From positions 1 through 29,389 of IMG/VR virus record IMGVR_UViG_3300023242_000170: a stretch of 29,389 nucleotides of DNA; one strand, 5' to 3'. Of this stretch, positions 8,769 to 29,389 are shown one piece after another. This DNA comes from a virus (taxonomy: Duplodnaviria > Caudoviricetes). The translations under genes were made by a program, and so were the position numbers. How positions within the stretch are numbered: the stretch's first letter is position 1; each line of letters opens with the position of its first letter. The notes beneath the pieces were generated by a model that had not been told where the DNA came from, made no database searches, and saw nothing but the letters and a program-made list of their open reading frames with translations.

Positions 8769-9374
8769 CTAAACTTTATAATTAAAAAAGTCTACGTCTC
8801 GTGCGTGGACTTTTTTTATGGCTGCAATACTTGCGCTATTGAAATGCTCTTTGAACTCCCAATGATCGTATCCTACAATGTTAGGTAATGGCAAGTTACA
8901 ACCTAAGTACTCTTGTACAGTTTTTAAATCTTCTTCTAGGGTTTCTGCTTTACATATATAATCAACCCATTCGTTGTTTACATTAATAAAGTCTACTTGA
9001 TTCGTAAAGCGATTAAACCATCTTGGAAATTCAAAAGGTATATCAGGATTGCAATAGTCAGCAACCCATTCATTGATAGGCTTTAGTTCTAGTACAGTTT
9101 GTCCATTCCAGTCTAACCAATATCCTTCGTCACGCACTTTGCGGTATAAGCTAAAAACTCTTTGCCACGGGTTGCGTACTACAGTTATTGTCTTAGCATT
9201 TGGATAGTGTTCACGTACCATGCCTAAGTGCGGATGATCAACCATCCAATCTACGTGAGATAGTACATTAAAGTTAGGATGTAACCAATCTGAGATAACC
9301 TTCTTCATTGCCATGCCAGTTCTAGGAACATGGACATATGCTAGTTCAGGCTTTTCTATATAAAATGTACCCAT
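8769..9374 (-). CDS. sulfotransferase family protein (Sulfotransfer_2-like)
   Basis: 5'-PSB-like YVHVPRTG and 3'-PB-like VVRNPWQRVFSLY motifs; C-terminal DVDFFNY. Confidence 0.8.
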   Translation of the reverse strand: MGTFYIEKPELAYVHVPRTGMAMKKVISDWLHPNFNVLSHVDWMVDHPHLGMVREHYPNAKTITVVRNPWQRVFSLYRKVRDEGYWLDWNGQTVLELKPINEWVADYCNPDIPFEFPRWFNRFTNQVDFINVNNEWVDYICKAETLEEDLKTVQEYLGCNLPLPNIVGYDHWEFKEHFNSASIAAIKKVHARDVDFFNYKV

Positions 9375-10144
9375 TAGTCAATCTTAATTAATTTAATTAA
9401 TGATCCCATTAAGTCCCACTCCCACCATTTTTCTCCAGTGTGATAATTTGCAGGCTTTGCATGATGGTTGTTATGCCATCCTTCACCTAAACTAACAATG
9501 TTAGCAATCCAACTATTAGAACTATGATCCTTTGTTTCGTGATTTCTGTAACCATGATAGTGTCCAAGCACATTAACTACGCCTATTAGATGCACTGTCA
9601 TGCTTGCAGGAACAACATATGCAAATAACCATAGTGCAGGATCTATTAATAGTAATACAGCAGAAAATGCAAATATAATTTTAAAGTAGTTTTTAAAGAT
9701 AAACTTATGTGTAGGACTACGCATCAAGTCTTTAATATACCTTACTGGGATAGCTGGTACTTTCCAATCGTATCCTAGCCAAACTTTAATTGCTTCTTTA
9801 AAATTAAACTTGCCATCAGCCCACGAACTATGCGGATCGCCTTCTCTATCTGATTGTGCATGGTGTTGTCTGTGTAAAGCTACCCAACTCATTGTAGGTC
9901 CTACTGTGCTAATAACGCTAATGTAACTTAGTATAGTTTCTAACCAAGGGTATGTTTTAAAACTTCTATGTGTTAGTAATCTATGCAGAGTTATAACACT
10001 GCTAATAGGTCCAATAATTAACCAAGAAATTGCAGCAATTGCAAATAGGTAATACTGTTGTGTGTACACTGCATATACAACTGCCGGTATGGTTACTACG
10101 TGATTGAATCCTTGTAACAGTCTTACTTTGGTGTTTAAATTCAT
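9374..10144 (-). CDS. membrane fatty-acid desaturase (delta-9/DesC-like)
   Basis: Three His boxes (HRLLTH, HRQHH, GEGWHNNHH) and hydrophobic transmembrane segments. Confidence 0.92.
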   Translation of the reverse strand: MNLNTKVRLLQGFNHVVTIPAVVYAVYTQQYYLFAIAAISWLIIGPISSVITLHRLLTHRSFKTYPWLETILSYISVISTVGPTMSWVALHRQHHAQSDREGDPHSSWADGKFNFKEAIKVWLGYDWKVPAIPVRYIKDLMRSPTHKFIFKNYFKIIFAFSAVLLLIDPALWLFAYVVPASMTVHLIGVVNVLGHYHGYRNHETKDHSSNSWIANIVSLGEGWHNNHHAKPANYHTGEKWWEWDLMGSLIKLIKID

Positions 10145-10761
10145 TTGCCTTCCTCTAACTTACTCCATTCAGCATGAGTAATTGTCTTTGGTGCCCAGTT
10201 GTCAAAGGCACCTTGTGTTGTCTCTTTCCATACAAAATTTTGCCAACACTTTTGTACGGGCCACGGGCAAGTTTGTATATATCCATTTGTTCCTAATGCC
10301 CATGCGCCTTCACTGGCAATGTCCATGTGCTTACACCATACTTTCCAAAATCCTCTGTTAGGTCTTGCAGGACGATTTTGCATTGTGATTAAGTACACTT
10401 CATACGTATTTACTTCTTCTAGTGCATCTATTAGTTTACAGGTACAACGAAAGCCGTCTGTCATATCTGTAGCAGTCATTCTAAAGTCTGGAAAAGTGTA
10501 CAGTCTGTTAATTTGTTTAGCAACATTAGGAGGATATCTACTGTCGTTAAACACACCTCCCATTACCATAGGTTTGCCCGTGCTGATTTGGTAAAGTACA
10601 CCGTAGCCTGTGTGTTCTTCTACTTTTAAATTATCTTTAATATAATTATTGCGAAGCCAGTTATCTTCCTCTAAGCAAATATCTCTTACTTTTTCAAACT
10701 CAGGTGTAGACTCGTAATAAATTTTGACATGCGTGTCTGTTAAATCGTATCTGTATCCCAT
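10141..10761 (-). CDS. hypothetical protein, possibly GNAT-like (start reassigned to ATG 10761, MGYRYD...)
   Basis: NRLYTFPDFR resembles GNAT motif A. The start at 10761 avoids overlap with the divergent gene. Confidence 0.6.
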   Translation of the reverse strand: MGYRYDLTDTHVKIYYESTPEFEKVRDICLEEDNWLRNNYIKDNLKVEEHTGYGVLYQISTGKPMVMGGVFNDSRYPPNVAKQINRLYTFPDFRMTATDMTDGFRCTCKLIDALEEVNTYEVYLITMQNRPARPNRGFWKVWCKHMDIASEGAWALGTNGYIQTCPWPVQKCWQNFVWKETTQGAFDNWAPKTITHAEWSKLEEGK

Positions 10762-10768
10762 TGTAACG

Positions 10769-10782
10769 TATTTACATAAATA
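10769..10782. promoter_or_regulatory. back-to-back late-promoter-like element TATTTA-CA-TAAATA
   Basis: TAAATA is present on both strands between divergent genes 10761(-) and 10800(+). Confidence 0.6.
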
Positions 10783-10799
10783 TTTTTCAGAGGAGTCCG

Positions 10800-11402
10800 A
10801 TGTTGGATACTGTAACAAAACTAAATTTTAAATTAGGTATTAACGAACTACGCCAATACTACGACAAATTAAACACAGACTACCAACATTTAGATTGGAG
10901 TTGGGAGAAGTGTGGCAATGATATTGTCAAACAATGGCGAGATGCTGCTTACGAAGATCCTGCTAACTTATTAACACACGGCTGGGCTATACAAAGTAAT
11001 TTAAAAGATATTACAATACCGTGTCCTCCTTGGAATATTAGCAAACACGAAACAGTAGATTATCGTAATACAGAATTAGCATTTGGTATAATTAGTTGTT
11101 TGCAAGATAAGATACCGTTTGGGTATCGCTGGGCAGTAAGTGTGCAGCCGCCAGGTGGCAAGGTTACCGAGCATACTGATGCAGAAGACGAATACACTGT
11201 GTGGTTGCCTATTCACACTAGCGGTCCTGCAATAACATTTGACAAAGAATACGAACTAATTGCAGATGGAAGTGCTTATTTGTTAAACACTACAAATCCG
11301 CATCACACATTTAATTCTAGTAATGAAGACAGAGTTACTATTATTTTTAGATTAAAACAAGATAAACTCAACGACTTAATATCTTTAGAAGGAACTATAT
11401 GA
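10800..11402 (+). CDS. Asp/Asn beta-hydroxylase-like 2OG-Fe(II) oxygenase
   Basis: PGGKVTEHTD...PHHTFN...DRVTII gives the HxD...H...R signature. Confidence 0.8.
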   Translation: MLDTVTKLNFKLGINELRQYYDKLNTDYQHLDWSWEKCGNDIVKQWRDAAYEDPANLLTHGWAIQSNLKDITIPCPPWNISKHETVDYRNTELAFGIISCLQDKIPFGYRWAVSVQPPGGKVTEHTDAEDEYTVWLPIHTSGPAITFDKEYELIADGSAYLLNTTNPHHTFNSSNEDRVTIIFRLKQDKLNDLISLEGTI

Positions 11403-12043
11403 AACATCTAGCATACTTGCCTATAGATATTGATGTAGAATGGCCTAACGAAGAATTGCTGTTGCAATGGTTCGAAAATCATAAATTGTTAGATAACGAC
11501 TATTGGGAGTTAACTTCAAACCGGCATGCATGGGCAATGACTTCAACTTGTAAGGAACCTAAAGACTGGCGTAGGTTTGATAAAGAAATGTGGGACAATC
11601 GTAGAACTGACGGAGTAAACGAAGGCTTATTTTTTCATCCTGGATTTGAGGAAACATTTCCTAGTCTTGCTAACTGTATCAAACAATTGCCATTTAAGCA
11701 ATTAACAGTAAGTGGTATGCTTTATCAATTAGGACCCATTCCAAATCATCAAGATGCACACGATCCGCATAATCCGGCAGAACCTAGACGTTATACAATT
11801 TATTTAACAGACCCTAAACATAATACGTTTTATTTTAGTAAAGAAGAAAACGGAGAAAAACACTATCCAAATATACAGAGTCCGTGCTTTGCATTTAATA
11901 ATAACAATGTATGGCATGGAGCAGTAGAAACACATCGACCAAAAATAATATTGACTACTGCTGGTATTATAGATAATGATAAACATAACGCATTAATTAA
12001 CCGTAGCTTAGAAAAGTACAACAACAAGGCATTATACATATGA
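11399..12043 (+). CDS. 2OG-Fe(II)/cupin oxygenase-like protein
   Basis: IPNHQD...FAFNN...WHGA...K motif. Confidence 0.7.
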   Translation: MKHLAYLPIDIDVEWPNEELLLQWFENHKLLDNDYWELTSNRHAWAMTSTCKEPKDWRRFDKEMWDNRRTDGVNEGLFFHPGFEETFPSLANCIKQLPFKQLTVSGMLYQLGPIPNHQDAHDPHNPAEPRRYTIYLTDPKHNTFYFSKEENGEKHYPNIQSPCFAFNNNNVWHGAVETHRPKIILTTAGIIDNDKHNALINRSLEKYNNKALYI

Positions 12044-12747
12044 ACTACGATTACTACTGGAATGACATACCAGGCGAAGGGAAATGTCGTAACAATTTAA
12101 TTTACACAAGTCTTATGAGAGAAGATAGACAGTTGTTTTGTCAATGGTTTTACAATGATGCTGTTTATCACAAAGGACAAAACGAAGTACTTGATCCTGC
12201 ATTAATGACAGAAAAGTGGAATCGAGAAGTTAAGTATTCACAACTAATGGCCGAAGAATATCCGCAGCATGTTCCTAACATATTTAAAGTCGATGCACAA
12301 GAACAAAAATTATACCTTAGTGTTGACGGGATTGACTTTTGGAATCGTGCTAACTGCACTGTAGCAAATTACGATAGTGTGCTGCCAGACTGGAGAGAAC
12401 AAATGCTTGAGATATTACAAGCATACAAAGATGTAGGATTATACAAATATAGCCTACATCCTAGCAGTTACTTTATAGTAGACGGAAAATTAAAAAGTTT
12501 TAATCATTTTTTCTGCTATCACGAAAGTGAAGGTTCAATTAAGATTTCAGATCATGCTAGTCATATATACAGTACAAGACAAGATATAATGCGTACACAA
12601 ATAGAGACTATGGGCATAAGTTGGGATGAGCCAGAATCGTTAAATACATTACAACATTTATGTTTTGAAAGTTTTAGAAAAAACTATACTGACGACTTTA
12701 TAGATGCAGCAAAACAAATATACAATAAAGGAACTAATAATTGTTAG
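12040..12747 (+). CDS. hypothetical protein, possibly a degenerate protein-kinase-like fold
   Basis: REVKY...VPNIF...YSLHPSSYFIVDGKLKSFN is spaced like kinase/APH motifs but lacks the catalytic Asp residues. Confidence 0.55.
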   Translation: MNYDYYWNDIPGEGKCRNNLIYTSLMREDRQLFCQWFYNDAVYHKGQNEVLDPALMTEKWNREVKYSQLMAEEYPQHVPNIFKVDAQEQKLYLSVDGIDFWNRANCTVANYDSVLPDWREQMLEILQAYKDVGLYKYSLHPSSYFIVDGKLKSFNHFFCYHESEGSIKISDHASHIYSTRQDIMRTQIETMGISWDEPESLNTLQHLCFESFRKNYTDDFIDAAKQIYNKGTNNC

Positions 12748-13949
12748 ATCAAATTAAAATAGTTGGTATAAATCAATTTACGCAGAACGCAATTGATACT
12801 ATACGTTCTGCAATAGAAGACGTCGATGGTAATGAACTGTTGCCCACTGTTAGTCTATGCCAGCACTGTCATTATCATGTTCCGGCATTACGCTATCACA
12901 AAAATAATCAAGTATTTATAGCCAAACATTGTGAAACACACGGTACAAGTCACCACATGATTGAAAGTGATTACGAATTTTATCGTAATATATACTATAC
13001 CCAAGATAACCCTCAATACAACTTTAACGGCGGAGTGCTAATAGAAGTAACTGACAGGTGCAATTTAGCCTGTCCGCATTGTTATCACGAACCTGATAAT
13101 GCACTTACAGATCAATCAGCTGAAAAAATTATTTCACAAATTAAAAAGTGGCCCCTTGGCGAAGATGCTATACATCGCGTCATCCTTAGTGGAGCAGAGC
13201 CAACTTTACGTAAGGACTTTAATAGTCTTGTTGAACAAATTAATGCTTTAGATCCTAGTATTACTGTGTCTGTAATGACTAACGGTATTCGTTTTTCAGA
13301 TAGAAACTATGTAAAGTCGGCAATTGCAAGCGGATTAAGTAGTGTTAACATAGGATTGAATCATCCAAGTTATAATGATCACAAAGTAATTAGAAGAAAA
13401 CAACTTGAAGCCATTCATAATGCACATGCAGAAGGATTACATATAAGTTATATCAGTTATACTATGATGACTCTAGGAGAAGTTGACTTTATAATGAACG
13501 AAATATGTAGCAACGAATGGCGAAGTAAAAACTTTAGAATTCGTTACGGAAGCGATATTGGTCGTAATCCTGGACAAGTGCGTATATTTGTTAGTGACGT
13601 ATACAAAGCAATCGAACAATGGTGTAAGGATAATAATAAATTATTTGAAAGAATTGTAGGAGCTGACAATAATATATATCATGTTATGGCTAAAATAGAC
13701 GGCAAAGACATAAGAATTATTCAATGGTGTGACGAAACAGATATTGATATGGAAGAACTTCGCTCTGGACCATGGTGCGATTTTGTGCCAGGTGGTATAA
13801 CAAATTTCTTACATCAAATTATTAGAAGAGACGCTTGGAAAAATAAAGGCAATACCCTTCCTGACAGTCCAATCGAACGATATATGTTTACTAGAAATCC
13901 AACTAAAGAACCATTAGATTTATTAACAGTATATAAAAAAGAGAAGTAG
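12741..13949 (+). CDS. radical SAM protein with N-terminal CxxC-x20-CxxH domain (MJ0619/COG1964-like)
   Basis: TVSLCQHC...KHCETHG, then IEVTDRCNLACPHCY, SGAEPT and MTNG. TTG start with AAGGA RBS. Confidence 0.88.
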   Translation: MLDQIKIVGINQFTQNAIDTIRSAIEDVDGNELLPTVSLCQHCHYHVPALRYHKNNQVFIAKHCETHGTSHHMIESDYEFYRNIYYTQDNPQYNFNGGVLIEVTDRCNLACPHCYHEPDNALTDQSAEKIISQIKKWPLGEDAIHRVILSGAEPTLRKDFNSLVEQINALDPSITVSVMTNGIRFSDRNYVKSAIASGLSSVNIGLNHPSYNDHKVIRRKQLEAIHNAHAEGLHISYISYTMMTLGEVDFIMNEICSNEWRSKNFRIRYGSDIGRNPGQVRIFVSDVYKAIEQWCKDNNKLFERIVGADNNIYHVMAKIDGKDIRIIQWCDETDIDMEELRSGPWCDFVPGGITNFLHQIIRRDAWKNKGNTLPDSPIERYMFTRNPTKEPLDLLTVYKKEK

Positions 13950-13950
13950 C

Positions 13951-14760
13951 ATGATTAAAGGTATTAACGGACGACCATACTTAGATATGGAACAGCACGT
14001 AGACATGGAAACGTTTGAACAATTGCAGCCAGAAATTATGCGAGGCTTTGCTGAAGCAAGATGGTTTGCAAAAGAAGGCACTTGGATGAAACCAGGCTTT
14101 GAATTTAAAGACATGAGTTACACGCTTAATTGGAAACCTATATATGCTGCAATGGAAGAGTTCCAAGCATTGCCCGACGATGATCCAATTAAAGTAGAGG
14201 GTATGAAAATATGGCCTACAGACTTTAAAGACTATAAGCAGCGTAATGTAATTACACGTTATCTTAAAATGGCAATGGAAGCGTACGATCCTTATATCTA
14301 TTACTTCTTACACGAAGAAGGCGACTGGGATGATCGTCCTGAGGAGAAAAAAGAAACTGAAGAATCAGAGTTCTTTCCTAATACTATGCGTTGGCTACAA
14401 GGCTTTAAGGATAATGAAATATTCAAATCATTTGGTCGAGTAATGTTTTTTCACTGCGAAGCAGATGGATTGCCATTTGAACACAGAGACTTAGGCGCAC
14501 AAAACGGCATATGGCCCAAAGACAGATACGAAGATCATAACAACGAGTTTATACATATCCGTACAGACACTCGCAATCAATTTTATATTTGGGATCCTGA
14601 CAAAAAGATGAAACACGGCATTAACACTCGTGCAGCTTTTTGGAATGATCAAGATTGGCACGGAGGGAATCGTGTTATGAGTCCTACATACGGTATGCGT
14701 ATTGACGGAACGTTCACTGATGCATTTAGAGAAAAATTAAAACTAAGTGGAACTTACTAA
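13951..14760 (+). CDS. 2OG-Fe(II)/cupin oxygenase-like protein
   Basis: GRVMFF...EHRD...WHGG...MRIDG. Confidence 0.65.
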   Translation: MIKGINGRPYLDMEQHVDMETFEQLQPEIMRGFAEARWFAKEGTWMKPGFEFKDMSYTLNWKPIYAAMEEFQALPDDDPIKVEGMKIWPTDFKDYKQRNVITRYLKMAMEAYDPYIYYFLHEEGDWDDRPEEKKETEESEFFPNTMRWLQGFKDNEIFKSFGRVMFFHCEADGLPFEHRDLGAQNGIWPKDRYEDHNNEFIHIRTDTRNQFYIWDPDKKMKHGINTRAAFWNDQDWHGGNRVMSPTYGMRIDGTFTDAFREKLKLSGTY

Positions 14761-15312
14761 GGCTGTAAATGTAAAAAGGAACTTAGTGCCTAGCCCGGCA
14801 TTAAATCCTGCATGCCAGCTTTCTAGTTTCGGATAGCGATATATAGTACCTTGTGGTTCCATATAGAAACATTCGTCTTCGACCATAAATGCTTGTCCTG
14901 GTTTAGGTTTATCTATAAAACAAATACATCTCATTAACTGTTCTTTAGTATACCCGACCAAGTTAACATCCTCTGTTAGACTAGGAATATCCCAATGCCA
15001 AGGAGCGCACTTTCCAGGACGTATTTCACTAATAAAACTTTGTAATACTGTGGTATTAGATGCCTTGCCAATTATTTTGTTAACTTCTTTGTCGTAGTGA
15101 GTGCCTGGTCTGTAATGAAAGAATTCTACACTGTTGCCTTTTGAATAACCGTGTTTGTCAGCTAGTTGTTTTTGTTTTAAATGATCTTCGTAAAATGCAT
15201 GCCCAGGATCAAGATCTCTATTACCAGTAAACGGCGTCACAGTATGTTGTAGACATTCGTTAATTAACGAGTCACATAAATGCGGCGGTAGTTTTCCTAA
15301 GTAATGTTTCAT
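14743..15312 (-). CDS. 2OG-Fe(II)/cupin oxygenase-like protein
   Basis: PGKCAPWHWD...WHAGFNAG...KFLF. Confidence 0.75.
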   Translation of the reverse strand: MKHYLGKLPPHLCDSLINECLQHTVTPFTGNRDLDPGHAFYEDHLKQKQLADKHGYSKGNSVEFFHYRPGTHYDKEVNKIIGKASNTTVLQSFISEIRPGKCAPWHWDIPSLTEDVNLVGYTKEQLMRCICFIDKPKPGQAFMVEDECFYMEPQGTIYRYPKLESWHAGFNAGLGTKFLFTFTALVSST

Positions 15313-15986
15313 ATTGCTGTTCCTACTGCTAAATTAAAATACGAAGTTTCGATTAATTTAAATTCTTCTAAATGACTACTTTCAATGTTAAACGAAACGT
15401 AGTTAGTGTTATACACAAAGCTATTTACTATTCCGTTTTTATTTGCTGCATTAAGCCAGGGACTGTAAAACTCATCAAACACATATCTATAATCAGGCGT
15501 GAATGTAGTTAATGTCATTGTTATATGCACAGGATCTATTAATATATTTTGATTAAGTAGTTTCCTAACTACTAATTGTATTCTATCAATTCGTCCTGTA
15601 TTTACTGCGCTATGCAGTTCACCGGCGTTCATATCAAACCAATAGTTTGATTCTACCTGCGGGTATATTAAATTAGCGTCAGTATATAATACAAAGCTAC
15701 GTTCGCCCTGGATATTAAAATGATACCTATCGTCCATATCTGCATGCGAGCGATATGCCTGTCCAGGCTCTAGTTTTATTAATCGTGCTTCGCCTATGTT
15801 GCTAGGTAATGTAGATACTAGTTTGTCCCATACTGTGCCTTTGTATTCTTCTTTAATAGTCCACGCATCGTAGAAAAAGTCCCCAGTAGGCTCATTTAAA
15901 GGTAACTTAAAGTTAACATCTATATCAGCAGACTTTAACTCTTTTTTAATTTTATCATTGACAAGGTAGTTAGTCTGTGCTATCAT
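15309..15986 (-). CDS. Asp/Asn beta-hydroxylase-like oxygenase with C-terminal extension
   Basis: ARLIKLEPGQAYRSHADMD...HSAVNTG...RIQLV. Confidence 0.78.
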   Translation of the reverse strand: MIAQTNYLVNDKIKKELKSADIDVNFKLPLNEPTGDFFYDAWTIKEEYKGTVWDKLVSTLPSNIGEARLIKLEPGQAYRSHADMDDRYHFNIQGERSFVLYTDANLIYPQVESNYWFDMNAGELHSAVNTGRIDRIQLVVRKLLNQNILIDPVHITMTLTTFTPDYRYVFDEFYSPWLNAANKNGIVNSFVYNTNYVSFNIESSHLEEFKLIETSYFNLAVGTAI

Positions 15987-15987
15987 A

Positions 15988-16020
15988 TATTTATTTATGT
16001 GTGTAGTTAATGGATAAGTA
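15988..16020. promoter_or_regulatory. divergent late-promoter-like elements
   Basis: CATAAATA on the minus strand (15992-15999) and GATAAGTA on the plus strand (16013-16020), each a few nt from an ATG. Confidence 0.55.
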
Positions 16021-16025
16021 CTTTT

Positions 16026-19022: not shown

Positions 19023-19031
19023 TTAACGATT

Positions 19032-20532: not shown

Positions 20533-21039
20533 ATGAAACATTTAGGTAATATAGAAAATAACAACTGGATTACCCAAGTTGTAGAGCAAGTAATGTCTAA
20601 AGAAGGCATGTTGCGTCCTAAGCAAGGCGGTATTCCAGATGGAGACAAAGGAAAACGTGAGTGGCAAAAAGCAATTGATGCTGGTTATGATCCTACTGCG
20701 GTGTACTTTCAAATGTTTGATAAAGACAATTTACAAATAGACGTTCCAAATATTTCAACATGCGGCAGACTGCAACACTGGTGGATTACTAAAATGCTGC
20801 CTGGCAACTTTATGCCGATGCATATGGATCCTCATACTGTGCAACAACAAAATGCAGATAGATTTTGGATACCATTACAAGACTGGCAACCCGGACACAT
20901 CTTTATGTACGAAGACTATGTTACAACTAACTACAAAAAGGGTGATATATTTCAATACGCAAATAGTGCTGCACTACATGGTGCAGCTAATATAGGATCT
21001 ACTCCAAGAGTAGTATTACAGGTTACGTTACATGAATAA
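20533..21039 (+). CDS. 2OG-Fe(II)/cupin oxygenase-like protein
   Basis: PGNFMPMHMD...LHGAANIG..PRVVLQ. Paralog-like to 14743-15312. Confidence 0.78.
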   Translation: MKHLGNIENNNWITQVVEQVMSKEGMLRPKQGGIPDGDKGKREWQKAIDAGYDPTAVYFQMFDKDNLQIDVPNISTCGRLQHWWITKMLPGNFMPMHMDPHTVQQQNADRFWIPLQDWQPGHIFMYEDYVTTNYKKGDIFQYANSAALHGAANIGSTPRVVLQVTLHE

Positions 21040-22591
21040 AAAAATAGTAATAGTCGGCGGTGGCACAGCAGGATGGATGGCTGCTGCTTATCTTGCAAAG
21101 TACCACGGTAGTGAAAATGTTACAGTTGTAGAGTCTGCTACTATTCCAAAGATCGGAATTGGTGAAAGTGTTACTCCGCACGTTCGAGATTTCTTTGAAG
21201 AGATTGACATGGACGAAACCGACTGGATGAAAGAAACAGGTGCTATTCACAAGTATGCAAATAAGTTTGTTGACTGGTGCGGTGCAGATGACGAGTCGTA
21301 TTTTAGCTTTAATTACACTACTCCTGCAAAAAACCTGTACAAGGATATATCTAAAAATGTATCCAGCAACGATTTTAGTGAAAATACTACACAAGCAAGA
21401 ACTATAGATATTTTATCTCACTTCTTGCATAATAATACGTATGACAGATTTGATCAATACTTTTGCCCACAGTTTCATTATATGGAAAATAATGTTTCTC
21501 CATATAATAACAATACTGCTGTGTTAAATCAAGCACACAGTTATGCCCATCATATTAACGCAGAGCTTATAGGCACTTATATTAAAACTAAAGTTGCTCC
21601 TAATATTACTAATATAATTGCCAACGTTATTAAAGTAAATGTACACGAAGAAGACATTAGTTCAATCGAATTAGACAATGGATCTATAATAACTGCTGAC
21701 TGGTTTATCGACTGTACCGGGTTTAGTAAAGTATTAGTTAATGCACTAGACTGGAAAACAAAAACATACGATCATCCAATAGATAGTGCCTGGGTGTGCC
21801 AAACCGATTATAGCAATCCTGAATCCGAGATGGTAAACTATACACAAAGTATTGCAGAGCCATACGGATGGCGTTTTAATATAGGACTATATCATCGTGC
21901 CGGGAACGGCTACTGTTTTAGTTCACAACATGTTAGTGACGAGGATGCTAAAGAGCATTTTCTAAAACAAATTAAGACTCCTAAAAACGAACCAAGATTA
22001 ATTAAATGGAAGCCTGAGAGATTAGAAACGTTTGCTAACGGAAACTGTGTAGCTGTTGGCCTAACGTGTGGATTTGTCGAGCCACTTGAAGCAAATGCGC
22101 TATACACCATAGTTACTAGTATTAGAAGATTGAACGAAGTATTAAATCTAGCAAATTATGATTCGTATAATGAAAAAATGGCATGTACTATTGACGACAT
22201 TGCTGATTTTATTTTAGTACACTATACGCTTAGTCCTAGAACAGATACTAAATTTTGGACAGACATGCAGGTAATGGGAAAAGCAAACGATCATGCATCT
22301 TTAGTTATAGACAAAATTTATAACAAACGTAATAGTATGCTTGGGGCTATTACAGGATATACTATGTTTCCTGATTATATGTGGGCACAACTTGCAGCTC
22401 ACTGGAATATAGATTTCGACATTCGGAATAACTCTAGCGATGCAGATAAAATATTAGCAAAGATGCATTTTGATTTTAATAATAATAAACATAAGTATAT
22501 TTCATCATTAGGCGAAAACAACTACGCATGGCTTAAGAGTAATATCTTTGGAAATGTACCTAGCAAAAAATGGAAAGCTAGTAGTGAGTAG
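21032..22591 (+). CDS. tryptophan halogenase-family flavin-dependent enzyme
   Basis: GGGTAGW, IGIGES, TGAIHK (catalytic Lys position), FIDCTGF and GFVEPLEA. Confidence 0.88.
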   Translation: MNKKIVIVGGGTAGWMAAAYLAKYHGSENVTVVESATIPKIGIGESVTPHVRDFFEEIDMDETDWMKETGAIHKYANKFVDWCGADDESYFSFNYTTPAKNLYKDISKNVSSNDFSENTTQARTIDILSHFLHNNTYDRFDQYFCPQFHYMENNVSPYNNNTAVLNQAHSYAHHINAELIGTYIKTKVAPNITNIIANVIKVNVHEEDISSIELDNGSIITADWFIDCTGFSKVLVNALDWKTKTYDHPIDSAWVCQTDYSNPESEMVNYTQSIAEPYGWRFNIGLYHRAGNGYCFSSQHVSDEDAKEHFLKQIKTPKNEPRLIKWKPERLETFANGNCVAVGLTCGFVEPLEANALYTIVTSIRRLNEVLNLANYDSYNEKMACTIDDIADFILVHYTLSPRTDTKFWTDMQVMGKANDHASLVIDKIYNKRNSMLGAITGYTMFPDYMWAQLAAHWNIDFDIRNNSSDADKILAKMHFDFNNNKHKYISSLGENNYAWLKSNIFGNVPSKKWKASSE

Positions 22592-23018
22592 CGTCGAACA
22601 AGGTATTTCTGAATGGATTGATAAGATTTCAGAAACACGTTCTGAATTAGGAGGATTACCTGTTTGTCCGTTTGCCAAAAAAGCTAGATACAAAGTAGAA
22701 CATTTAGTAGACCTCAATATTAATCCTGTGCTAGGTTCATTAGAACTAATAGTTTATATACTAGACAACAAGTACACATTCGAACAACTAGATACTATTG
22801 CAAAAGAGTACAATAGTTTTTATCCTTCTTTAGTATTTTTGCCAGACGGTATAGATAGATATTCTAATATTAATGGAGTACAAACTAGTAACGGAAAATA
22901 TAATATATTATTATGCCAAGACAGGGCTGGGCTGCAAAAGGGCAGAGATACACTACAAAATACATCGTATTACTCGTTCTGGGACAAAGATTATTTAAAG
23001 GAGATTTTAGAACAATGA
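22584..23018 (+). CDS. hypothetical protein (DUF1415-like CPFA motif); probable GTG start at 22584
   Basis: LPVCPFAK motif; ATGA overlap with the next gene. Confidence 0.6.
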   Translation: MSSVEQGISEWIDKISETRSELGGLPVCPFAKKARYKVEHLVDLNINPVLGSLELIVYILDNKYTFEQLDTIAKEYNSFYPSLVFLPDGIDRYSNINGVQTSNGKYNILLCQDRAGLQKGRDTLQNTSYYSFWDKDYLKEILEQ

Positions 23019-23632
23019 CTGAAAATATATACCACCGATACTTAACACTTCCATTTGAGTTTACTAAACCAGAAAAATTTAATTATGCTGGCGAACGTTT
23101 TGCAGTTGCAATGGAAGAAAGCGATGTTTATCAACCTTTTAGAGAGTGGATTCAAAGTCTTGGGCTAGAATTATCTAATATCTTAGAAGCGTTTTATACA
23201 TGTCCAGGTGGCAGCGATGTACCACTTCATGCCGATCCTGGAATGTTGCCTGGGACCGCAGACGTATGTAAATTAAACTTTACATGGGGGCCGGAAGATA
23301 GCACCACACGATGGTACAAAATTAGAGACGAAACAAAGTATGAAAAATTTTACGGTGGCACAGCCAGTGGATCTAATAAGAAGTTTTATGAGGCTGGTAT
23401 TAATCCTGACATTGACATAGACTATAGCATAATAGCAGATTTTGACGACTGTGACTTAGTGTACGAAGCTGTTATAAACAAGCCTAGTCTTATTAATGTT
23501 GGACAGCTTCACTCTACATGGAATCCTGGCGACGAATACCGCTGGACCTTTTGTTTTGTGTTATTAGAAAATAACGAGCCAATAACAATGGAAAGAGGAT
23601 GTGAAATATTCAAGAACTACATAGATAGTTAA
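23015..23632 (+). CDS. cupin/2OG-Fe(II) oxygenase-like protein (start ATG 23015)
   Basis: AAGGAG RBS; PLHAD...KLNFTWG...PSLINVGQLHSTWN...RW. Confidence 0.7.
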   Translation: MTENIYHRYLTLPFEFTKPEKFNYAGERFAVAMEESDVYQPFREWIQSLGLELSNILEAFYTCPGGSDVPLHADPGMLPGTADVCKLNFTWGPEDSTTRWYKIRDETKYEKFYGGTASGSNKKFYEAGINPDIDIDYSIIADFDDCDLVYEAVINKPSLINVGQLHSTWNPGDEYRWTFCFVLLENNEPITMERGCEIFKNYIDS

Positions 23633-23639
23633 CTACGCA

Positions 23640-23647: not shown

Positions 23648-23672
23648 GTTTAACACTGAATAGGAAACAAAC

Positions 23673-24812
23673 ATGAAATTTAAAGGATTAATACCTGAAC
23701 ACCAAGTCCAAGACATACTTTTACCGTTACCGAGGTGGAATTATGGTGAAATTAGAGAAGGTAGAAAAGTTATAGATCCTCTTATGCACTTTGGTGCATT
23801 TGTATTAGGATACCAAAAAGACGAAATCGTAGACTTTGTTGCAGATGTACTCAAAGGCGAACGTCCTGAGCTTGGCGAAAACCAAATGTCAAAGGGCGGT
23901 GCTAACAGATTAAATCATATCAGCTTTGAATTTGCCGACAGAGTTCATGCACTAACTGGAATGAAGTCTTTTTATTCACTTAGTGGGTCCGATGCTAATG
24001 AAGGCGCTATTAAATTAGCTACTGCATACCAATGGCAAAAAGGCAACAAACATAAGAACATAGTTGTAGGGTTCAGCGACAGCTACCACGGTAGTACTAT
24101 GATGACATGCAGCGTAGGCTACGAAAACTTTATGGACAATCCATTTTATACACTAGAGCCGCATCAGAATACAAGACGCATATCCAGAATCTGGGCAGAG
24201 CAAGATATAGACTGGGATAATGTGGCTGCTGTAATGATCGAACCATGTTCATACGGTTCTGCGCTGCTACCTCCTACTGATGAATGGTGGGCACACTTAG
24301 ACAAACTACGCACAGACCACGATGTTGTAATTATATTTGACGATATCTTTACTGGTGGTGGTAAGACAGGTAACTATGTAGGTTGGCATGACACTCCTAT
24401 CAAGCCAGATATTTCAACTATGGGCAAAGCAATAACAGGTGGATTTTTCCCCCTAAGTATGGTATTATATAATGAGAGAATTGAAAATGTTCTGCCTGAA
24501 GGCTTTTTCTGGGAACACGGATTTACTTACAGCTTTAGTTTAGCAGGAATAGCTAGTGCTATAAAATACTTAGATATTCTAGAACGTGATAACTTATTAG
24601 AAAAGCATGACGAAATAGTAGAACGTGCTATTTCAGTATTTGAAAATAACGGACACGTAGTTACTAGTAGATATGGATTAATATTTAAAGCTGCTAGAAG
24701 CGACAATAAAAAAGACAAACACTTTTATGTAATACCGATGAACGCGGGCGATGAATACTTTGAAGCACTACAGGAGAACCTAATATGGTTTACACAGAAT
24801 ACGACCCACTAG
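23673..24812 (+). CDS. class III PLP-dependent aminotransferase
   Basis: SGSDANEGAIK, SYHGST, IEP, IFDDIFTGGGKTG, GKAITGG (PLP Lys) and HGFTY. Confidence 0.9.
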   Translation: MKFKGLIPEHQVQDILLPLPRWNYGEIREGRKVIDPLMHFGAFVLGYQKDEIVDFVADVLKGERPELGENQMSKGGANRLNHISFEFADRVHALTGMKSFYSLSGSDANEGAIKLATAYQWQKGNKHKNIVVGFSDSYHGSTMMTCSVGYENFMDNPFYTLEPHQNTRRISRIWAEQDIDWDNVAAVMIEPCSYGSALLPPTDEWWAHLDKLRTDHDVVIIFDDIFTGGGKTGNYVGWHDTPIKPDISTMGKAITGGFFPLSMVLYNERIENVLPEGFFWEHGFTYSFSLAGIASAIKYLDILERDNLLEKHDEIVERAISVFENNGHVVTSRYGLIFKAARSDNKKDKHFYVIPMNAGDEYFEALQENLIWFTQNTTH

Positions 24813-25867
24813 AAGAAGTTATTGTTGCAGATTCGTATGCAGGTGGTGACTTAGATCATTTATTTCCAAATGAGAACTTATCACAGTTTAATCAAATACT
24901 AGACGAAACAAAAGAAGACTTTGACAAATTAGCAGACTTCTTAAAAGCAGCCGGAGTTACAGTTAAGAGACCAGACGTATATCATTACGATGGTCATATC
25001 GCAATGTCAGGGTTTGATGTAAAGTTTCCAATGGGACCAACCGTTCCTAGAGACCAATACAAAGTATTAGATAAAACTATTATCCAAACATACACTAGCT
25101 TAACTGATCGGTATTTTGATGGACTAAGTTTTTATAATATATTTTCAGAAATGTTTGACGAGGGCTATAATTGGATTAGCCAAGCTGCTCCTCCATTAGT
25201 TCCTGTTACGCCAAGTGACATATGGTACATGCCGGGGCAAGAGCCCGGAGCTAACATTTATTATAGTAAATTAAAAGACAGAATATTATTTCACACAGCA
25301 ACTATGTATCCTGTAGGTGATAAAATTATTATAGACGCCGATGGACCTGGTAGTAAAAAAGGCTACGAATGGCTTAAACGTAATTTAACAGACTTTGAAT
25401 TTATAGAAAACACTAACGGGCATGCTGAAAACTACGGACATATTGATCACGGATTTCTTATGATCGACGACGAGACAGTTTTACATGCTGGCATTGAATG
25501 GGTACCACATGCATTGCGGCATTTAAAATTAATCGATGCTGAACAATTTGTTCCTTCACCGAAGACAAAAGAATACAAAAGAAACTTCATTGCTAAAGGT
25601 GGTAGATACGAATTAGACTGGGTTGAAAATTATTTAGGTAATTGGACAGGATATAACCAAGACTGTTGCTTTGACTTTAACGTACTAGTTGTGGATAGAA
25701 ACAACCTTATCTTTGGACGAAAAGTTCCAGATCTATTTAAATTCTTAAAAACACACGGAATTGATTGTCATGTATGTGACCAACGTCATATGCTGTTCTG
25801 GGAAGGTGGCATTCATTGCAGTACATTAGATACTAAAAGGCGTGGTTCTAAAAGGTCAATTATTTAG
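24785..25867 (+). CDS. amidinotransferase (glycine/inosamine-phosphate amidinotransferase, pentein fold)
   Basis: EYDPLEEVIV, PRD, HID and GGIHCSTLD (catalytic Cys). Confidence 0.88.
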   Translation: MVYTEYDPLEEVIVADSYAGGDLDHLFPNENLSQFNQILDETKEDFDKLADFLKAAGVTVKRPDVYHYDGHIAMSGFDVKFPMGPTVPRDQYKVLDKTIIQTYTSLTDRYFDGLSFYNIFSEMFDEGYNWISQAAPPLVPVTPSDIWYMPGQEPGANIYYSKLKDRILFHTATMYPVGDKIIIDADGPGSKKGYEWLKRNLTDFEFIENTNGHAENYGHIDHGFLMIDDETVLHAGIEWVPHALRHLKLIDAEQFVPSPKTKEYKRNFIAKGGRYELDWVENYLGNWTGYNQDCCFDFNVLVVDRNNLIFGRKVPDLFKFLKTHGIDCHVCDQRHMLFWEGGIHCSTLDTKRRGSKRSII

Positions 25868-25868
25868 T

Positions 25869-26006
25869 ATGGAACAATTAACTGTACAAGATGTTATTAA
25901 GCGAGCCGGTGGAATAAAGTTAATCAACGACACCGGCATTTCTAGTGATAATAAGTACATAGTCCATGCTGAAGACTGTATTAAAGAACAATTAGATAAC
26001 TTATGA
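25869..26006 (+). CDS. 45-aa hypothetical peptide (MEQLTVQDVIKRAGG...), not in the ORF track
   Basis: Starts 1 nt after the amidinotransferase stop and ends in an ATGA overlap with speD. Confidence 0.55.
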   Translation: MEQLTVQDVIKRAGGIKLINDTGISSDNKYIVHAEDCIKEQLDNL

Positions 26007-26374
26007 AATTACTAGAACACAAACACTTGATCATTCGTACCGAAGTTAACAACCCTCCAAGAGATGAAGTTTGGTTACAAAATTGGCTTACTGAACTAGT
26101 AGATAAAATTGGTATGAAAGTATGCCGAGGGCCTATTACTGCATATGTTGACATGCCCGGTAACGAAGGATTAACTGGCGTAGTTGTAATCGAAACTAGT
26201 CATATTGCAATACATGTATGGGACGCTGTTGAGCCAGCACTTGTGCAACTAGATGTTTACACATGTGGTGCTTTAAATAAAGACATTATTTTTGCAGAGT
26301 TAAAACAATGGGATCCTGTTAAAATTGAATGGAAATACCTAGATAGAGAATTTGGATTAAACGAAGTGAAGTAA
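26003..26374 (+). CDS. speD: S-adenosylmethionine decarboxylase proenzyme
   Basis: KHLI, GLTGVVVIETSHIAIHVW (pyruvoyl cleavage site) and QLDVYTCG. Confidence 0.92.
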   Translation: MKLLEHKHLIIRTEVNNPPRDEVWLQNWLTELVDKIGMKVCRGPITAYVDMPGNEGLTGVVVIETSHIAIHVWDAVEPALVQLDVYTCGALNKDIIFAELKQWDPVKIEWKYLDREFGLNEVK

Positions 26375-26387
26375 AGAAAGAAGTATT

Positions 26388-26987
26388 ATGATATTATCAA
26401 TATTTGGATTACCAGTTGTTATAATTAAAAATAATGATATAAACACATTATTTTCGAACGAACTACATGACGAAGTAATGAAGCATCTTATGCTTCCTGA
26501 AAATAAAGATGTTAGTCACCCGTACGCAAGAGGTGGACGAGTTTGTAGTACAGATCTTAATTTTACATTAACTAGCGATAAAGCGAAACAATTTAATATA
26601 CTATTAGATACACTTAAACAAACAGGAATAAAGTATGCTAATTTGTATTCAGATGCCACTGATTTACAATTTGATAATATGTGGATTAATTTAACTTATG
26701 CAGGTTGCGAAACTAGAAATCACTGGGATAGGTATACCGAAGAAGATGAAAAAACTCTAATAATGTTATTCTATCCTAAAGCTCCTTTGGGTGGATCAAA
26801 TTTAGTTTTTATACACAACAGCAATTACGGTGATTGGCCTAGCGAATATCAAGATAGTGACGTACTTAGACTTGCTATCGAAGAAGGCGATATTGTTATT
26901 ATGGACAATACTATTTTACATGCTGTAGATGCACATATGCCAAGTGAGCCTCGTATGTGTATTGCTACTGAATTTAAGTTTGTTTAA
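26388..26987 (+). CDS. 2OG-Fe(II) oxygenase (TIGR02466-like)
   Basis: FGLPV, MWIN, NHWD, EEGDIVI...LHAV and PRMCIA. Confidence 0.78.
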   Translation: MILSIFGLPVVIIKNNDINTLFSNELHDEVMKHLMLPENKDVSHPYARGGRVCSTDLNFTLTSDKAKQFNILLDTLKQTGIKYANLYSDATDLQFDNMWINLTYAGCETRNHWDRYTEEDEKTLIMLFYPKAPLGGSNLVFIHNSNYGDWPSEYQDSDVLRLAIEEGDIVIMDNTILHAVDAHMPSEPRMCIATEFKFV

Positions 26988-27825
26988 CTTTTTTATCAGT
27001 ACCAATAAAGTCGTGTCCTATGTTATAGTTACTAGGACAAAATTTGCATTGCGGTATAGGATTAACTAAATTGTTTACAAATTTCTCAACATCATCATCG
27101 TGCGACATTGGTTGATATGCATGTGCTAACTCTTTATCTGCAACTGCAACATTAAATTGATTTAAAAAATCTGGTAATACACTTACTAATGGACATTTGT
27201 ATAATTTGCCTTTATTAAGTTGATGGCAAGTTTTAAATCCACAAACATCGTGTGCTTCGTCTACATCGCTATCGTACCCCAGTGTTAGTTGCTTATTAAC
27301 TAAGTCCATTGCACTAGCTCTAAATGTTTGTGACCAGTCAAGAATTACTTCAACACCGTTTTTATCAATGAATATTCTAGACACTCTGCGAGCAGGAGCT
27401 TCTCCAGTATCAGATACGATTACATCAAGGAATGTGTTAATAAAGTCTAAAAAGCCGTCATAAAGTTTTATATCATGACATGTTATCCAAAGTGTACCAT
27501 TATTCTTTGATAGTACATCATAAACATCTTGTGTTAGTTTATTAAGTGTTGACCCATTAGTAGATATTTGTAATTTAGCAGTTGGCCATAAGTTAGATAT
27601 ACCTTTGAGCCATTTATTGAAATCAGGATTCAGTGTAGGCTCGCCGCCCATAAGTTGTATTATGCCAATATCAAGTTTTTTGCTTAACAGTTCGTACTCA
27701 TCTTTATAGTCGTCCCACCGCTGGTGTCCTTTGAAAGCATAATTATTAAAGCTCTGACAATGTGTACAACTGTAATTACATACATTGGTAATGTACATTT
27801 CTGAATATTTTAAAGTAGGCTTCAT
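26974..27825 (-). CDS. radical SAM protein
   Basis: ITNVCNYSCTHC, MGGEPT and STNG; C-terminal C..C..GKLYKCP..CKFCP. Confidence 0.9.
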   Translation of the reverse strand: MKPTLKYSEMYITNVCNYSCTHCQSFNNYAFKGHQRWDDYKDEYELLSKKLDIGIIQLMGGEPTLNPDFNKWLKGISNLWPTAKLQISTNGSTLNKLTQDVYDVLSKNNGTLWITCHDIKLYDGFLDFINTFLDVIVSDTGEAPARRVSRIFIDKNGVEVILDWSQTFRASAMDLVNKQLTLGYDSDVDEAHDVCGFKTCHQLNKGKLYKCPLVSVLPDFLNQFNVAVADKELAHAYQPMSHDDDVEKFVNNLVNPIPQCKFCPSNYNIGHDFIGTDKKVKQT

Positions 27826-28427
27826 TTCTTTTTTCCAATAATCATATAGCGTGTATACATAGGAGTTTCAAATTCACCTCGCCATAGAGGTTTAACTTTA
27901 CTCATACGCATAAAGTCATCTGCGTCTGTTGCACAACGTATATGTTCGGGCAAGTCAAAATAGTTATTACTCTGTATTACAAATATTGCATCGTCTGGTT
28001 GATTACTTAACCATTGTTCGTATTGTTCTTGCGTAACGTGTTCACAGCTTGTGTTAATAATAATATTTGCAGGAGATGAATAATCACACATATCTGCTGT
28101 TACTGCGGTAAACCGTCCTTCGATTTCCTGACGCTTGTTTACTGTACACGCTGTTTCTTCACATACAGGGTCTATATCTACACTTGTAATGTGCCTAATG
28201 GACATATCACTATTAAATAGCAGATTTGATAGTACTCCGTTCCAGCCACCAAAAATTACTATATTAGATTTACTATAATGCGCTTTATACACTTTAGTTA
28301 ATTGTTCAATGAGCCAAACTTTACTGTTGACTTGTCCTTTCCAAAAGCTTTCTAGAGTACGATAGCGATCTTCACTATTACGAATAGCATCCATCCAGAA
28401 TAACACATCTTGTATTTCAACTTTCAT
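27822..28427 (-). CDS. class I SAM-dependent methyltransferase
   Basis: IVIFGGWNG, SVDID, TADM and INTSCEH. Confidence 0.8.
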   Translation of the reverse strand: MKVEIQDVLFWMDAIRNSEDRYRTLESFWKGQVNSKVWLIEQLTKVYKAHYSKSNIVIFGGWNGVLSNLLFNSDMSIRHITSVDIDPVCEETACTVNKRQEIEGRFTAVTADMCDYSSPANIIINTSCEHVTQEQYEQWLSNQPDDAIFVIQSNNYFDLPEHIRCATDADDFMRMSKVKPLWRGEFETPMYTRYMIIGKKK

Positions 28428-29388
28428 ACTTTACCTTTGGTAGTTTACTATCTGCACTACTTACGCAAGTAGGAGTAATGCACTTACGTGGCGCTTTAAA
28501 GAGCTCAAAGCCGCCGTCTAACGTGCCTAGAGGTTCGTCATGGCAACTGTAGCTGCGCTTAACTTCATTCTCTCTAATGACGCATCCTTGGTATCCTGCA
28601 TTACAACTCCAGCCTTTGAACTTGTTGAATCCGAAGGAATTAAAGCGTTCTGCTTGATCTACGTAGTAGACGTTACCGTCTTTGTCTTGCAATTCTACTT
28701 GCAATAACGGTATTATTTTTTTAAATTCGTCTGGGATTCTTTGTGGGAATCCTGTTTGCAACAAGCCGAGTTGTACATCCGTATATCCGGATACCACACG
28801 AGAGGCTGTAGGATCGGACTGTGGCTTGACAGTAACATTAATGCCTCTGGCGGCAAATCGCTGTAAACGTTCGTAAAGCTCTTCAAACATTTCAGGAACC
28901 ATAACTTGATTGATCGTAATATATACATTATTTTTCATTAATTGGAGACATTTATCCCCAAACTCCTGTTCATTTGCAAACTCTGCATGGTAGCTTGCTG
29001 TTATACTTCTACGTTGCAAACTGCTTGTAGATTCTAACCAGTTGTTCCACCATTTGCTTCCTGGGCTTAGATTGGTTGTCATGTGGATACTCTGGTACTC
29101 AGGAGCTGTATCACTACAGTAATGGTCTATAACCTTCCCAAAGTATTTATATGCAGTAGGCTCACCTCCACTAAAACTAAAGTGAAAGTCAGTAAAGCCG
29201 TTTTCTCTTGCTTGGCGCTTTATTTCGTCAATTGTGTTAGTATATACTGCTAAATCTTGATGATCAGGAGTGCTGCTACGAGCATAGGGCCAGCAATAGC
29301 TACAATTGTAGTTACAAAACCTAGCAAGGATCCAACTAACTGTAAACAAGTTTGTGTTCAACAGCGTCTTTTGGCCGAAGCTTGTTAT
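28417..29388 (-). CDS. radical SAM protein with C-terminal SPASM-like domain; probably 5'-truncated by window
   Basis: RFCNYNCSYC, SGGEPT, TTN and CNAG...C...CITPTC. The frame is open to the window edge (ITSFGQKTLLNT...). Confidence 0.9.
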   Translation of the reverse strand: MTSFGQKTLLNTNLFTVSWILARFCNYNCSYCWPYARSSTPDHQDLAVYTNTIDEIKRQARENGFTDFHFSFSGGEPTAYKYFGKVIDHYCSDTAPEYQSIHMTTNLSPGSKWWNNWLESTSSLQRRSITASYHAEFANEQEFGDKCLQLMKNNVYITINQVMVPEMFEELYERLQRFAARGINVTVKPQSDPTASRVVSGYTDVQLGLLQTGFPQRIPDEFKKIIPLLQVELQDKDGNVYYVDQAERFNSFGFNKFKGWSCNAGYQGCVIRENEVKRSYSCHDEPLGTLDGGFELFKAPRKCITPTCVSSADSKLPKVKYES

Positions 29389-29389
29389 A

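Follow-up and report, generated by a model that had tools for sequence, protein, structure and literature searches.

Gene Content of the Window and Identity of the Phage

The stretch of DNA analyzed in this work (further called the window) is the whole of the IMG/VR record IMGVR_UViG_3300023242_000170 (Duplodnaviria; Caudoviricetes), positions 1–29,389. Its part between positions 8769 and 29389 is occupied by 26 tightly packed open reading frames (ORFs; g16–g41), which form an island of enzyme genes directly behind a fibre-type gene, g15. A first-pass annotation of the sequence had described about 26 consecutive genes for modifying enzymes in this place, and this description was confirmed, including six radical S-adenosyl methionine (rSAM) proteins and eight proteins with an HxD..H motif. 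Based on comparisons with related contigs, we propose, with a probability of roughly 0.5, that the island builds and edits a sugar decoration on Ser/Thr-rich fibre proteins of the virion. The GC content equals 33–40% in the island and 35–42% in the left arm. As the contig stops within the last gene, g41, the window holds an incomplete island, namely the g15-proximal part of a hypervariable one.

The best matches of the left-arm genes g10 and g13 are those of PA5oct-, Rak2- and GAP32-like jumbo myophages (25–43% identity), and this uncultured marine phage is likely a jumbo myophage related to Rak2 and PA5oct. Five related long contigs have lengths of 78–201 kb and an estimated completeness of 20–57%, which corresponds to genomes of about 350–390 kb. 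Four of them were read end to end as complete islands, and ten of the 26 window genes (g21–g27, g29, g40 and g41; further called the backbone) are present in all four, which shows that the gene content is not randomly assorted. Among the other window genes, g30 was found in three of the complete islands, g17 (25%), g31, g33, g34 and g35 in one each, and the remaining ten in none. A MoxR AAA+ and metallopeptidase-vWA gene pair is located at 3597–6109, with sigma70-type promoters in 35/36 and 28/38 upstream regions; passages of PMC7824862 report such a MoxR-vWA pair in jumbo phages of group 2.2. A tRNA scan of the window gave no hits.

Genes of the Island

The left boundary of the island is g15 (7656..8765, + strand), a mosaic fibre-type protein and candidate acceptor of the proposed decoration, which matches Pfam Mtd_N above the cut-off and whose mosaic structure is visible in an alignment of 20 homologues. 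It contains 25% Ser+Thr and no Cys, ends in a C-terminal motif conserved among its homologues and is preceded by TAAATA at position 7621. Among cultured phages, no full-length relative of g15 was found, only four C-terminal matches.

All six rSAM proteins (g22, g26, g27, g29, g39 and g41) contain CxxxCxxC and G[G/A]EP motifs and pass the cut-off of Pfam PF04055 (Radical_SAM). Two backbone members are N-terminal twitch enzymes, i.e., g26 (16026..17294, +; TAAGTA 5 nt before the ATG) and g29 (19032..20438, −; shared with Bdellovibrionota), which reach 327 and 377 bits, respectively, against NCBIfam NF033640 N_Twi_rSAM (cut-off 170), a model for an architecture rather than for any reaction, whose cut-off the remaining four rSAM proteins do not reach (g39 at 33 and g41 at 35 bits). 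The best PDB match of the g29 profile, cytosylglucuronate decarboxylase, is weak (E 0.005). The backbone protein g22 (12741..13949, +; 4/4 complete islands) carries an N-terminal Zn ribbon and has its best PDB match in 7tol (2.5e-13); it shares the N-terminal metal ribbon and the rSAM core with Tes/GDGT-MAS, but scores 75 bits against the NCBIfam Tes equivalog with its cut-off of 450, and the alignment stops near residue 226 and covers the N-half only. Short rSAM proteins, recognized by Pfam and motifs, are encoded by g27 (17287..18189, +; backbone, 4/4 islands) and the accessory g39 (26974..27825, −). The truncated backbone gene g41 (28417..29389, −; Pfam and motifs) lacks its 5′ end, and its relatives continue into another rSAM gene (family f1) and a GT2-like gene (family f10; GT, glycosyltransferase).

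HxD with a distal His was found in eight proteins, with clear library support for two accessory ones, the AspH-like Fe/2-oxoglutarate (2OG) oxygenase g19 (10800..11402, +; Pfam Asp_Arg_Hydrox above the cut-off) and the 2OG-Fe(II) oxygenase g38 (26388..26987, +; phrog_81, 1e-11). Library support is weak for the AspH-like g30 (20533..21039, +; Pfam E 0.007; TAAATA 6 nt before the ATG). None was obtained for the AspH-like backbone protein g25 (15309..15986, −; 4/4 islands; TAAATA 5 nt before the ATG), a homologue of which matches Asp_Arg_Hydrox at 2e-4, or for four putative Fe/2OG oxygenases: the accessory g20 (11399..12043, +), the backbone proteins g23 (13951..14760, +; 4/4 islands at 55–65%) and g24 (14743..15312, −; 32–38% to relatives), and g33 (23015..23632, +), which travels with g34 and g35.

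Several single-enzyme labels of the first-pass annotation held with Pfam cut-offs passed, all for accessory genes: the fatty-acid desaturase family protein g17 (9374..10144, −; FA_desaturase, 74.5 bits, His boxes intact), the flavin-dependent halogenase family protein g31 (21032..22591, +; Trp_halogenase, 313 bits; PDB 1e-55; GxGxxG present), the class III aminotransferase g34 (23673..24812, +; Aminotran_3, 147 bits; TATAAATA upstream) and the SAM decarboxylase SpeD, g37 (26003..26374, +; AdoMet_dc, 51 bits). In g31 both WxWxIP and FxxPxxSxG, which we take to be the signatures of flavin-dependent halogenases, are degenerate, and halogenation by this protein is uncertain. Since the g31 signatures are degenerate and g22 is Tes-like in its N-half only, neither halogenation nor Tes-type C–C coupling can be assumed.

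The amidinotransferase label of the accessory g35 (24785..25867, +) is based on PDB matches to HsvA (9e-23) and inosamine-phosphate amidinotransferase (8e-17). In the g35 family alignment Cys and His are invariant (9/9), and the position of the HsvA Asp is occupied by His in 8/9 sequences, the catalytic residues of amidinotransferases presumably being Cys, His and Asp. HsvA amidinates spermidine (PMC6187163). Passages of a 7-deazaguanine preprint (10.1101/2023.04.13.536721) do not implicate an enzyme of the g35 type. The accessory sulfotransferase-like g16 (8769..9374, −) stays just under the cut-off (Pfam Sulfotransfer_2/3, E 1–2e-4).

The kinase-like, SGNH and methyltransferase labels were drawn from Atlas features, motifs or weak matches. 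The backbone protein g21 (12040..12747, +; 4/4 complete islands) resembles kinases of the Kdo (3-deoxy-D-manno-octulosonic acid)/RIO/APH type in its Atlas features and alignment, with altered catalytic motifs; a non-canonical sequence is conserved in its family (alignment A4) at the expected position of the catalytic loop, which might make g21 a pseudokinase or a protein of different activity. For the accessory g28 (18180..19022, +), an SGNH-like esterase/acyltransferase, a GxS-type motif was seen and no library match. The backbone protein g40 (27822..28427, −), shared with Bdellovibrionota and phage RsoM2USA, is likely a class I SAM-binding transferase, with weak Spermine_synth/Methyltransf_25 matches only (E 0.002–0.05), 4,899 homologues and nothing significant in a PDB profile search. 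A SpeD gene is inserted near g40 in two unrelated contexts (L116 and L134), and g40 homologues weakly match the spermidine synthase domain; aminopropyl transfer by g40 could be an alternative to methyl transfer.

The accessory g18 (10141..10761, −) is a probable GNAT-fold acyltransferase, to which an Atlas feature match led (a cluster with 12% Acetyltransf_1, taken as a lead only). It was considered as a backbone member and left out of the count, as no homology to the conserved family f35 was detectable. Two further ORFs are g32 (22578..23018, +; start at 22554 or 22578), which matches the uncharacterised phrog_10325, and the 46-aa g36 (25867..26006, +), without homologues in the loci examined.

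The GT-Like Block beyond the Contig End

The first-pass annotation saw no GT core in the island, and library scans (Pfam, PHROG, NCBIfam) gave no match to nonribosomal peptide synthetase (NRPS), polyketide synthase (PKS) or GT families inside the window. As regards GTs, this impression results from the contig ending before the GT-like block. Two related contigs (L086 and L087) are 99.9% identical to window positions 27001–29389 and continue with the rSAM gene f1 and then, about 1.1 kb past the edge, with the GT2-like f10. Beyond these genes, relatives encode another sulfotransferase-like protein, proteins with PP-loop motifs and a UDP-glucose dehydrogenase; UDP-glucose dehydrogenases and epimerases recur across the related islands.

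Four GT-like genes (f335, f203, f81 and f10) lie 23–40 kb from g15 in all five long contigs. In the four complete islands the gene order is the same, i.e., tail-fibre/tail genes, f334, f335, f203, a spacer gene, f81, f10, g41, g40 with f1, g26/g27/g29, g25, a g24-like gene, g23/g22/g21 and g15. The link of the island to fibres, first noticed from its position after g15, was thus found at both ends, with tail-fibre genes directly before the GT block in 4/4 islands. Among 37 loci found with f335, many of them near-identical, f10 was present in 36 and g41 in 32, the misses falling at locus or contig ends. Of 276 loci found with g40, 80 were kept, and they show that the island continues past the edge of the window. 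The other part of the first-pass claim, the lack of an NRPS/PKS core, was corroborated, as carrier, condensation and ketosynthase families had no match among 77 unassigned proteins of the four complete islands; G001 has one AMP-binding gene, which is truncated.

The four families are likely GT-A enzymes, by remote assignment. In f10 and f81 the Asp of the DxD motif is invariant, and in the f10 model it follows a strand (predicted local distance difference test, 93). Seven f81–f10 fusions with a precomputed GT2 label occur among the 120 homologues listed; these were rescanned because of that label, and five pass Pfam PF00535 and one more PF13641. The f335/f203 profile matches glycogenin (E 0.01) with the DxD aligned. 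PDB profile searches with f10, which has at least 8,000 homologues, gave nothing significant.

Wider Distribution of the Core Genes

RsoM2USA is the sole match of f10, and also of f335, in a set of 50,697 phage records. In this phage, an epimerase, four GT-like genes, a twitch rSAM gene and a g40 homologue stand right after the sheath and tube genes, and a TAA[AG]TA-type motif precedes the latter; the passages on this phage in PMC8504454 do not discuss the GT-rSAM genes. RsoM2USA also carries (L081:25132-41197) a long array of paralogues of about 200 aa, alike at their N- and C-termini, which are not the island oxygenases.

In GTDB, g29 as a single sequence matched nothing, but a g29 alignment retrieved 71 loci, 56 of them titled Bdellovibrionota or Oligoflexia and several on megabase contigs. 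Within these 71 loci, g41 is present in 52, the f1 family in 57, g40 in 31 and an f10-like gene in 29, and other GT2 genes and carbamoyltransferases often lie nearby. Some of the other 15 loci (L209, L163 and L164) resemble phage contigs binned into bacterial or archaeal metagenome-assembled genomes; L209 carries homologues of g4, g5, g9 and g10.

Reassortment and Cassettes

The left arm and the island reassort with crossovers inside g15. The crossover zone is located at 7955..7967 (+), about codons 100–104, at a conserved motif, and was recognized by an identity jump of the related contig L001 and by ends of RNA contigs. L001 is 72.5% identical to the window over 816–7011, 99.97% from 7955 and 99.99% to 29082, and the window's own join is supported by L006, up to 8108. 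In L002 the arm shows 75–78% and the island 92–96% identity; in L003 these values equal 71% and 87%. The arm of L010 is 91% identical at the protein level, and the genes after its g15 (three seen) are unrelated. RNA contigs from three of four runs have a loose end at 7967 and carry a third version of the 5′ part of g15. A transfer of the island into L001 as one block became less likely, as L001 equals L006 over the first 120 nt and then diverges, so the arm could be the exchanged segment.

Within the island, parts of the accessory gene set travel as cassettes (scored as genes at most three apart): g17 and g18 are together in 7/7 loci, g33 and g34 in 16/16, g34 and g35 in 16/16, and the trio g33–g34–g35 in 16 loci, 13 of which show <75% identity. 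Two near-identical contigs (L004 and L085) have f20, a QueC-like gene of the PP-loop type that the window lacks, inserted between g25 and g26 (window position 16025), and L085 has no g28 (window 18180–19036); both differences are clean single-gene gains or losses. In L094 and L090 the level of identity to the window changes abruptly from one gene to the next (in L094, 99% for g31, 54% for g33 and 90% for g35), a pattern showing allele replacement within the island.

Promoter Motifs and Expression

TAA[AG]TA is present within 40 nt upstream of 7/7 visible operon heads versus 1/18 internal genes, and in 20,000 shuffles of the upstream regions the maximum was 5/7, with none giving 6 or 7. Back-to-back TAAATA sites at 10769..10782 (no strand assigned) serve g18–g16 and g19–g23, the g18 site lying 7 nt before the ATG and its transcript likely being leaderless. 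At four heads (10761, 15986, 16026 and 20533) the motif stands 5–7 nt before the ATG, a spacing that suggests leaderless transcripts. The first-pass claim that most island operons start with TAAATA/TAAGTA was therefore borne out, but not the supposed difference from the left arm, since the motif also precedes left-arm g7, g12 and g15: ATAA[AG]TA was found before g15 in 43/52 unique upstream regions of relatives, before g7 in 35/39 and before g12 in 22/34, versus 148/27,699 (0.5%) coding windows.

TAAATA resembles the late promoters of phage T4. As in late units of the T4 type, a TATAAATA-like motif stands at operon heads and is common to structural genes, and this association, with the T4 analogy, supports TAA[AG]TA as a late-type promoter. 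The late timing claimed at first was supported in part only, through the motif shared with structural genes; against it, left-arm genes use the motif too, and a sigma70-type site stands at the head of the GT operon. A sigma70-like site also occurs at 15958–15986 (+), within the 5′ end of g25 and aimed at g26, and similar ones were seen in L003 and L116. Contigs of four marine RNA libraries from three studies cover 20–26 of 30 bins of window positions 1–20000, which reflects presence and not timing, with DNA carry-over possible.

Proposed Function of the Island

Modification of a macromolecule, already considered in the first-pass annotation, is graded as the likeliest role of the island. For the proposed sugar decoration of the fibres, the GT2-/GT8-like f10, f81, f203 and f335, located outside the window, would transfer nucleotide sugars, some of them supplied by island epimerases and dehydrogenases, and the conserved rSAM set (g26, g27, g29, g41 and f1) with g40 might oxidise, epimerise, deoxygenate or alkylate these sugars. 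The second conserved arm (g21–g25) and the accessory cassettes would attach variable substituents, such as unsaturated acyl (g17 and g18), sulfate (g16) and guanidino/aminopropyl groups (g33–g35 and g37), and possibly halogen or hydroxyl groups (g31 and the oxygenases). Crossovers in g15 and cassette swaps would vary the decoration, which would likely be selected by host recognition. We favour a fibre glycan because the GT-like, rSAM and SAM-binding transferase genes are invariant and fixed behind fibre genes and because the visible operons share the structural-gene motif. Characterized twitch/SPASM rSAM enzymes often act on sugars or aminocyclitols, and Ser+Thr amount to 17–25% in g15 and the fibre genes versus 6–15% in the island enzymes.

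Several observations weigh against a fibre glycan. Ser/Thr richness is common in fibres, and lipid or polyamine chemistry is no less plausible than sugar chemistry for the desaturase, the Tes-like rSAM protein, SpeD and the HsvA-like enzyme. The GT-rSAM-methyltransferase core is present on Bdellovibrionota chromosomes, where a virion cannot be its target. None of 31 single-domain f10/f81 members passes any Pfam cut-off, and profile–profile comparisons of f10 and f81 with bacterial GT2 enzymes gave probabilities of 3.1% and 4.6%, though with the DxD aligned. As the crossover site falls at a motif conserved across g15 homologues, it may mark a mere homology anchor and not a functional link. Sigma70-type sites precede the GT operon head in 4/4 complete islands (7/188 ORFs were flagged overall) and f10 in 16/28 upstream regions, and for this reason the GT core may be expressed before virion assembly. 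Finally, since the passages on promoters in the PA5oct report (PMC7318152) give only TTGAC/TATAATA, the late-promoter assignment of TAAATA rests on the T4 analogy and the association with structural genes.

A bolder version of the fibre-glycan proposal, which we regard as doubtful, is that a widespread clade of marine jumbo phages of about 350–390 kb might coat their fibres with an exotic, self-made glycan or glycolipid, built by unstudied rSAM families shared with the predatory Bdellovibrionota, with Tes-like C–C coupling by g22 and guanidino, sulfate and acyl cassettes, and that recombination in g15 might switch a "chemical serotype", exchanging fibre tip and decoration kit together. If the proposed decoration of fibres is real, host recognition or shielding in abundant marine jumbo phages would depend on virion chemistry beyond the fibre sequence, and 23–40 kb per genome would be spent on it. 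The island supplies several uncharacterised rSAM families, whose relatives number in the thousands, together with a minimal core that is well delimited, so that their chemistry becomes accessible to tests, and the presence of the same core in Bdellovibrionota hints at an attachment-surface chemistry common to bacterial predators and phages.

The alternative that survives best, although unlikely, is that the island remodels the surface glycan or lipid of the infected host (lipopolysaccharide, capsule or membrane lipids), which would exclude competing phages or prolong the survival of the infected cell. Such remodelling is the reading given to analogous islands in passages of PMC7029224 and in section 3.4.10 of PMC7824862, and it agrees with the sigma70-type promoters before the GT operon, with cellular homologues lying beside GT2 genes and carbamoyltransferases, and with the desaturase, AspH-like and Kdo-kinase-like proteins, which suit envelope chemistry. 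It is opposed by the position of the island, fixed between tail-fibre genes and g15, by the structural-gene motif at all seven visible operons, and by flippase, polymerase and ligase families being unmatched among the 77 unassigned proteins.

It is quite unlikely that the product is a diffusible small molecule or modified lipid (a guanidino-polyamine or an aminocyclitol conjugate), released at lysis or directed against competitors. The enzymes matched by g35, which act on spermidine and inosamine phosphate, the adjacent SpeD and aminotransferase genes and the cohesion of g33–g34–g35 (16 loci, 13 at <75% identity) argue for such a product, and a secondary metabolite was proposed for a cyanophage halogenase-2OG cluster in passages of PMC7824862. 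However, these genes belong to the accessory set (g34 and g35 are present in 1/4 complete islands, g37 in 0/4), the invariant part is the GT-rSAM set beside fibres, and exporter families were, like the carrier, condensation and ketosynthase families, unmatched in the window and among the 77 unassigned island proteins.

We consider it improbable that the enzymes modify the fibre proteins directly, in the manner of ribosomally synthesized and post-translationally modified peptides (RiPPs), by hydroxylation, halogenation or radical cross-links, with the GT block as a separate neighbour. The AspH-like character of the oxygenases, the conserved C-terminal motif of g15 and the co-travel of the 3′ two-thirds of this gene with the island would fit that idea. 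Nevertheless, the GT genes are interleaved with g41, f1 and g40 on the same strand in phages and bacteria, every peptide-maturase model scored far under its cut-off, and a conserved short precursor could not be found, with g36 missing from all four complete islands and Cys lacking in g15.

Hypermodification of phage DNA bases is very improbable. Phage DNA modification employs GTs, rSAM enzymes and oxygenases, and the QueC-like f20 is present in related islands, but TET/JBP, DNA methyltransferase and DpdA-type families were unmatched in the island, QueE and FolE are encoded to the left of g3 and so not within it, and the island is tied to fibre genes. That the contig is cellular or chimeric, or its genes a random pile, can practically be dismissed, as the genes of the left arm find their matches in Rak2/PA5oct-like phages, the joins are backed by contigs that overlap them and ten genes are conserved in 4/4 complete islands, the point in its favour being the identical flanks of L001 and the window around a divergent 7.9-kb segment, an assembly bubble.

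Comparison with Described Systems

Calling the island a candidate for an undescribed system, as was done at first, proved an overstatement, since analogous islands are in print (PMC7029224, PMC7824862, PMC2853527 and PMC12390700), and in the passages describing them no tested product is given for any. The host recognition cluster of pelagimyophages and cyanomyophages (Zaragoza-Solas et al. 2020, PMC7029224) is likewise a large, hypervariable, non-syntenic island of the structural region, with tail fibres, GTs and added rSAM cassettes; its GTs are assigned by the authors, as a prediction, to modification of the host O-chain. It belongs to another phage group and is flanked by VrlC and the neck gene gp14, whereas the present island, in a phage with Rak2/PA5oct-like core genes, lies between tail-fibre genes and g15 and has a conserved ten-gene backbone of rSAM, oxygenase and kinase-like proteins. 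The halogenase-2OG-carbamoyltransferase cluster of cyanophage S-SSM6a (Iyer et al. 2021, PMC7824862) also combines a halogenase, several 2OG oxygenases and a methylase, with a product that is predicted only; as described there, it differs in its size (8–12 genes), in the phage group (2.1 versus the 2.2-like group here) and in having no rSAM array. Campylobacter phages CP220 and CPt10 (PMC2853527) share an interchangeable module with five rSAM genes and an amidinotransferase, likened here by description only, and the passages on it describe no oxygenase array or GT-fibre link. In Aeromonas phage 332-Vera, eight rSAM genes are located among structural genes, according to passages of PMC12390700.

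The features that define NRPS, PKS or RiPP clusters (carrier, condensation and ketosynthase families, a conserved precursor) were found neither in the window nor among the 77 unassigned proteins of the four complete islands. In mycobacteriophages, phage GTs encoded beside structural genes reportedly decorate the virion, and two or three GTs are said to do so without rSAM or oxygenase tailoring; the location of GTs next to structural genes is common to both systems, and virion glycosylation by the present phage is a proposal. Our literature search, which left most subscription journals and supplements outside its scope, found no paper on the island of this clade, its product or the Bdellovibrio core. 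The window adds the full two-armed architecture, the split into backbone and cassettes, a crossover within g15 and a mixture of promoter types.

Two minor observations concern rSAM genes located elsewhere. The cultured Vibrio jumbo phage K566 (L082) carries five distant twitch-like rSAM genes within 18 kb, with no homologue of f10 or g40 in the 41 kb read. In the window itself, positions 1–357 (+) encode the C-terminus of a QueE-like rSAM protein, and its relatives have FolE and SAM synthetase genes upstream (L056:963-1649; L021:1346-2434), which points to genes of the 7-deazaguanine type outside the island.

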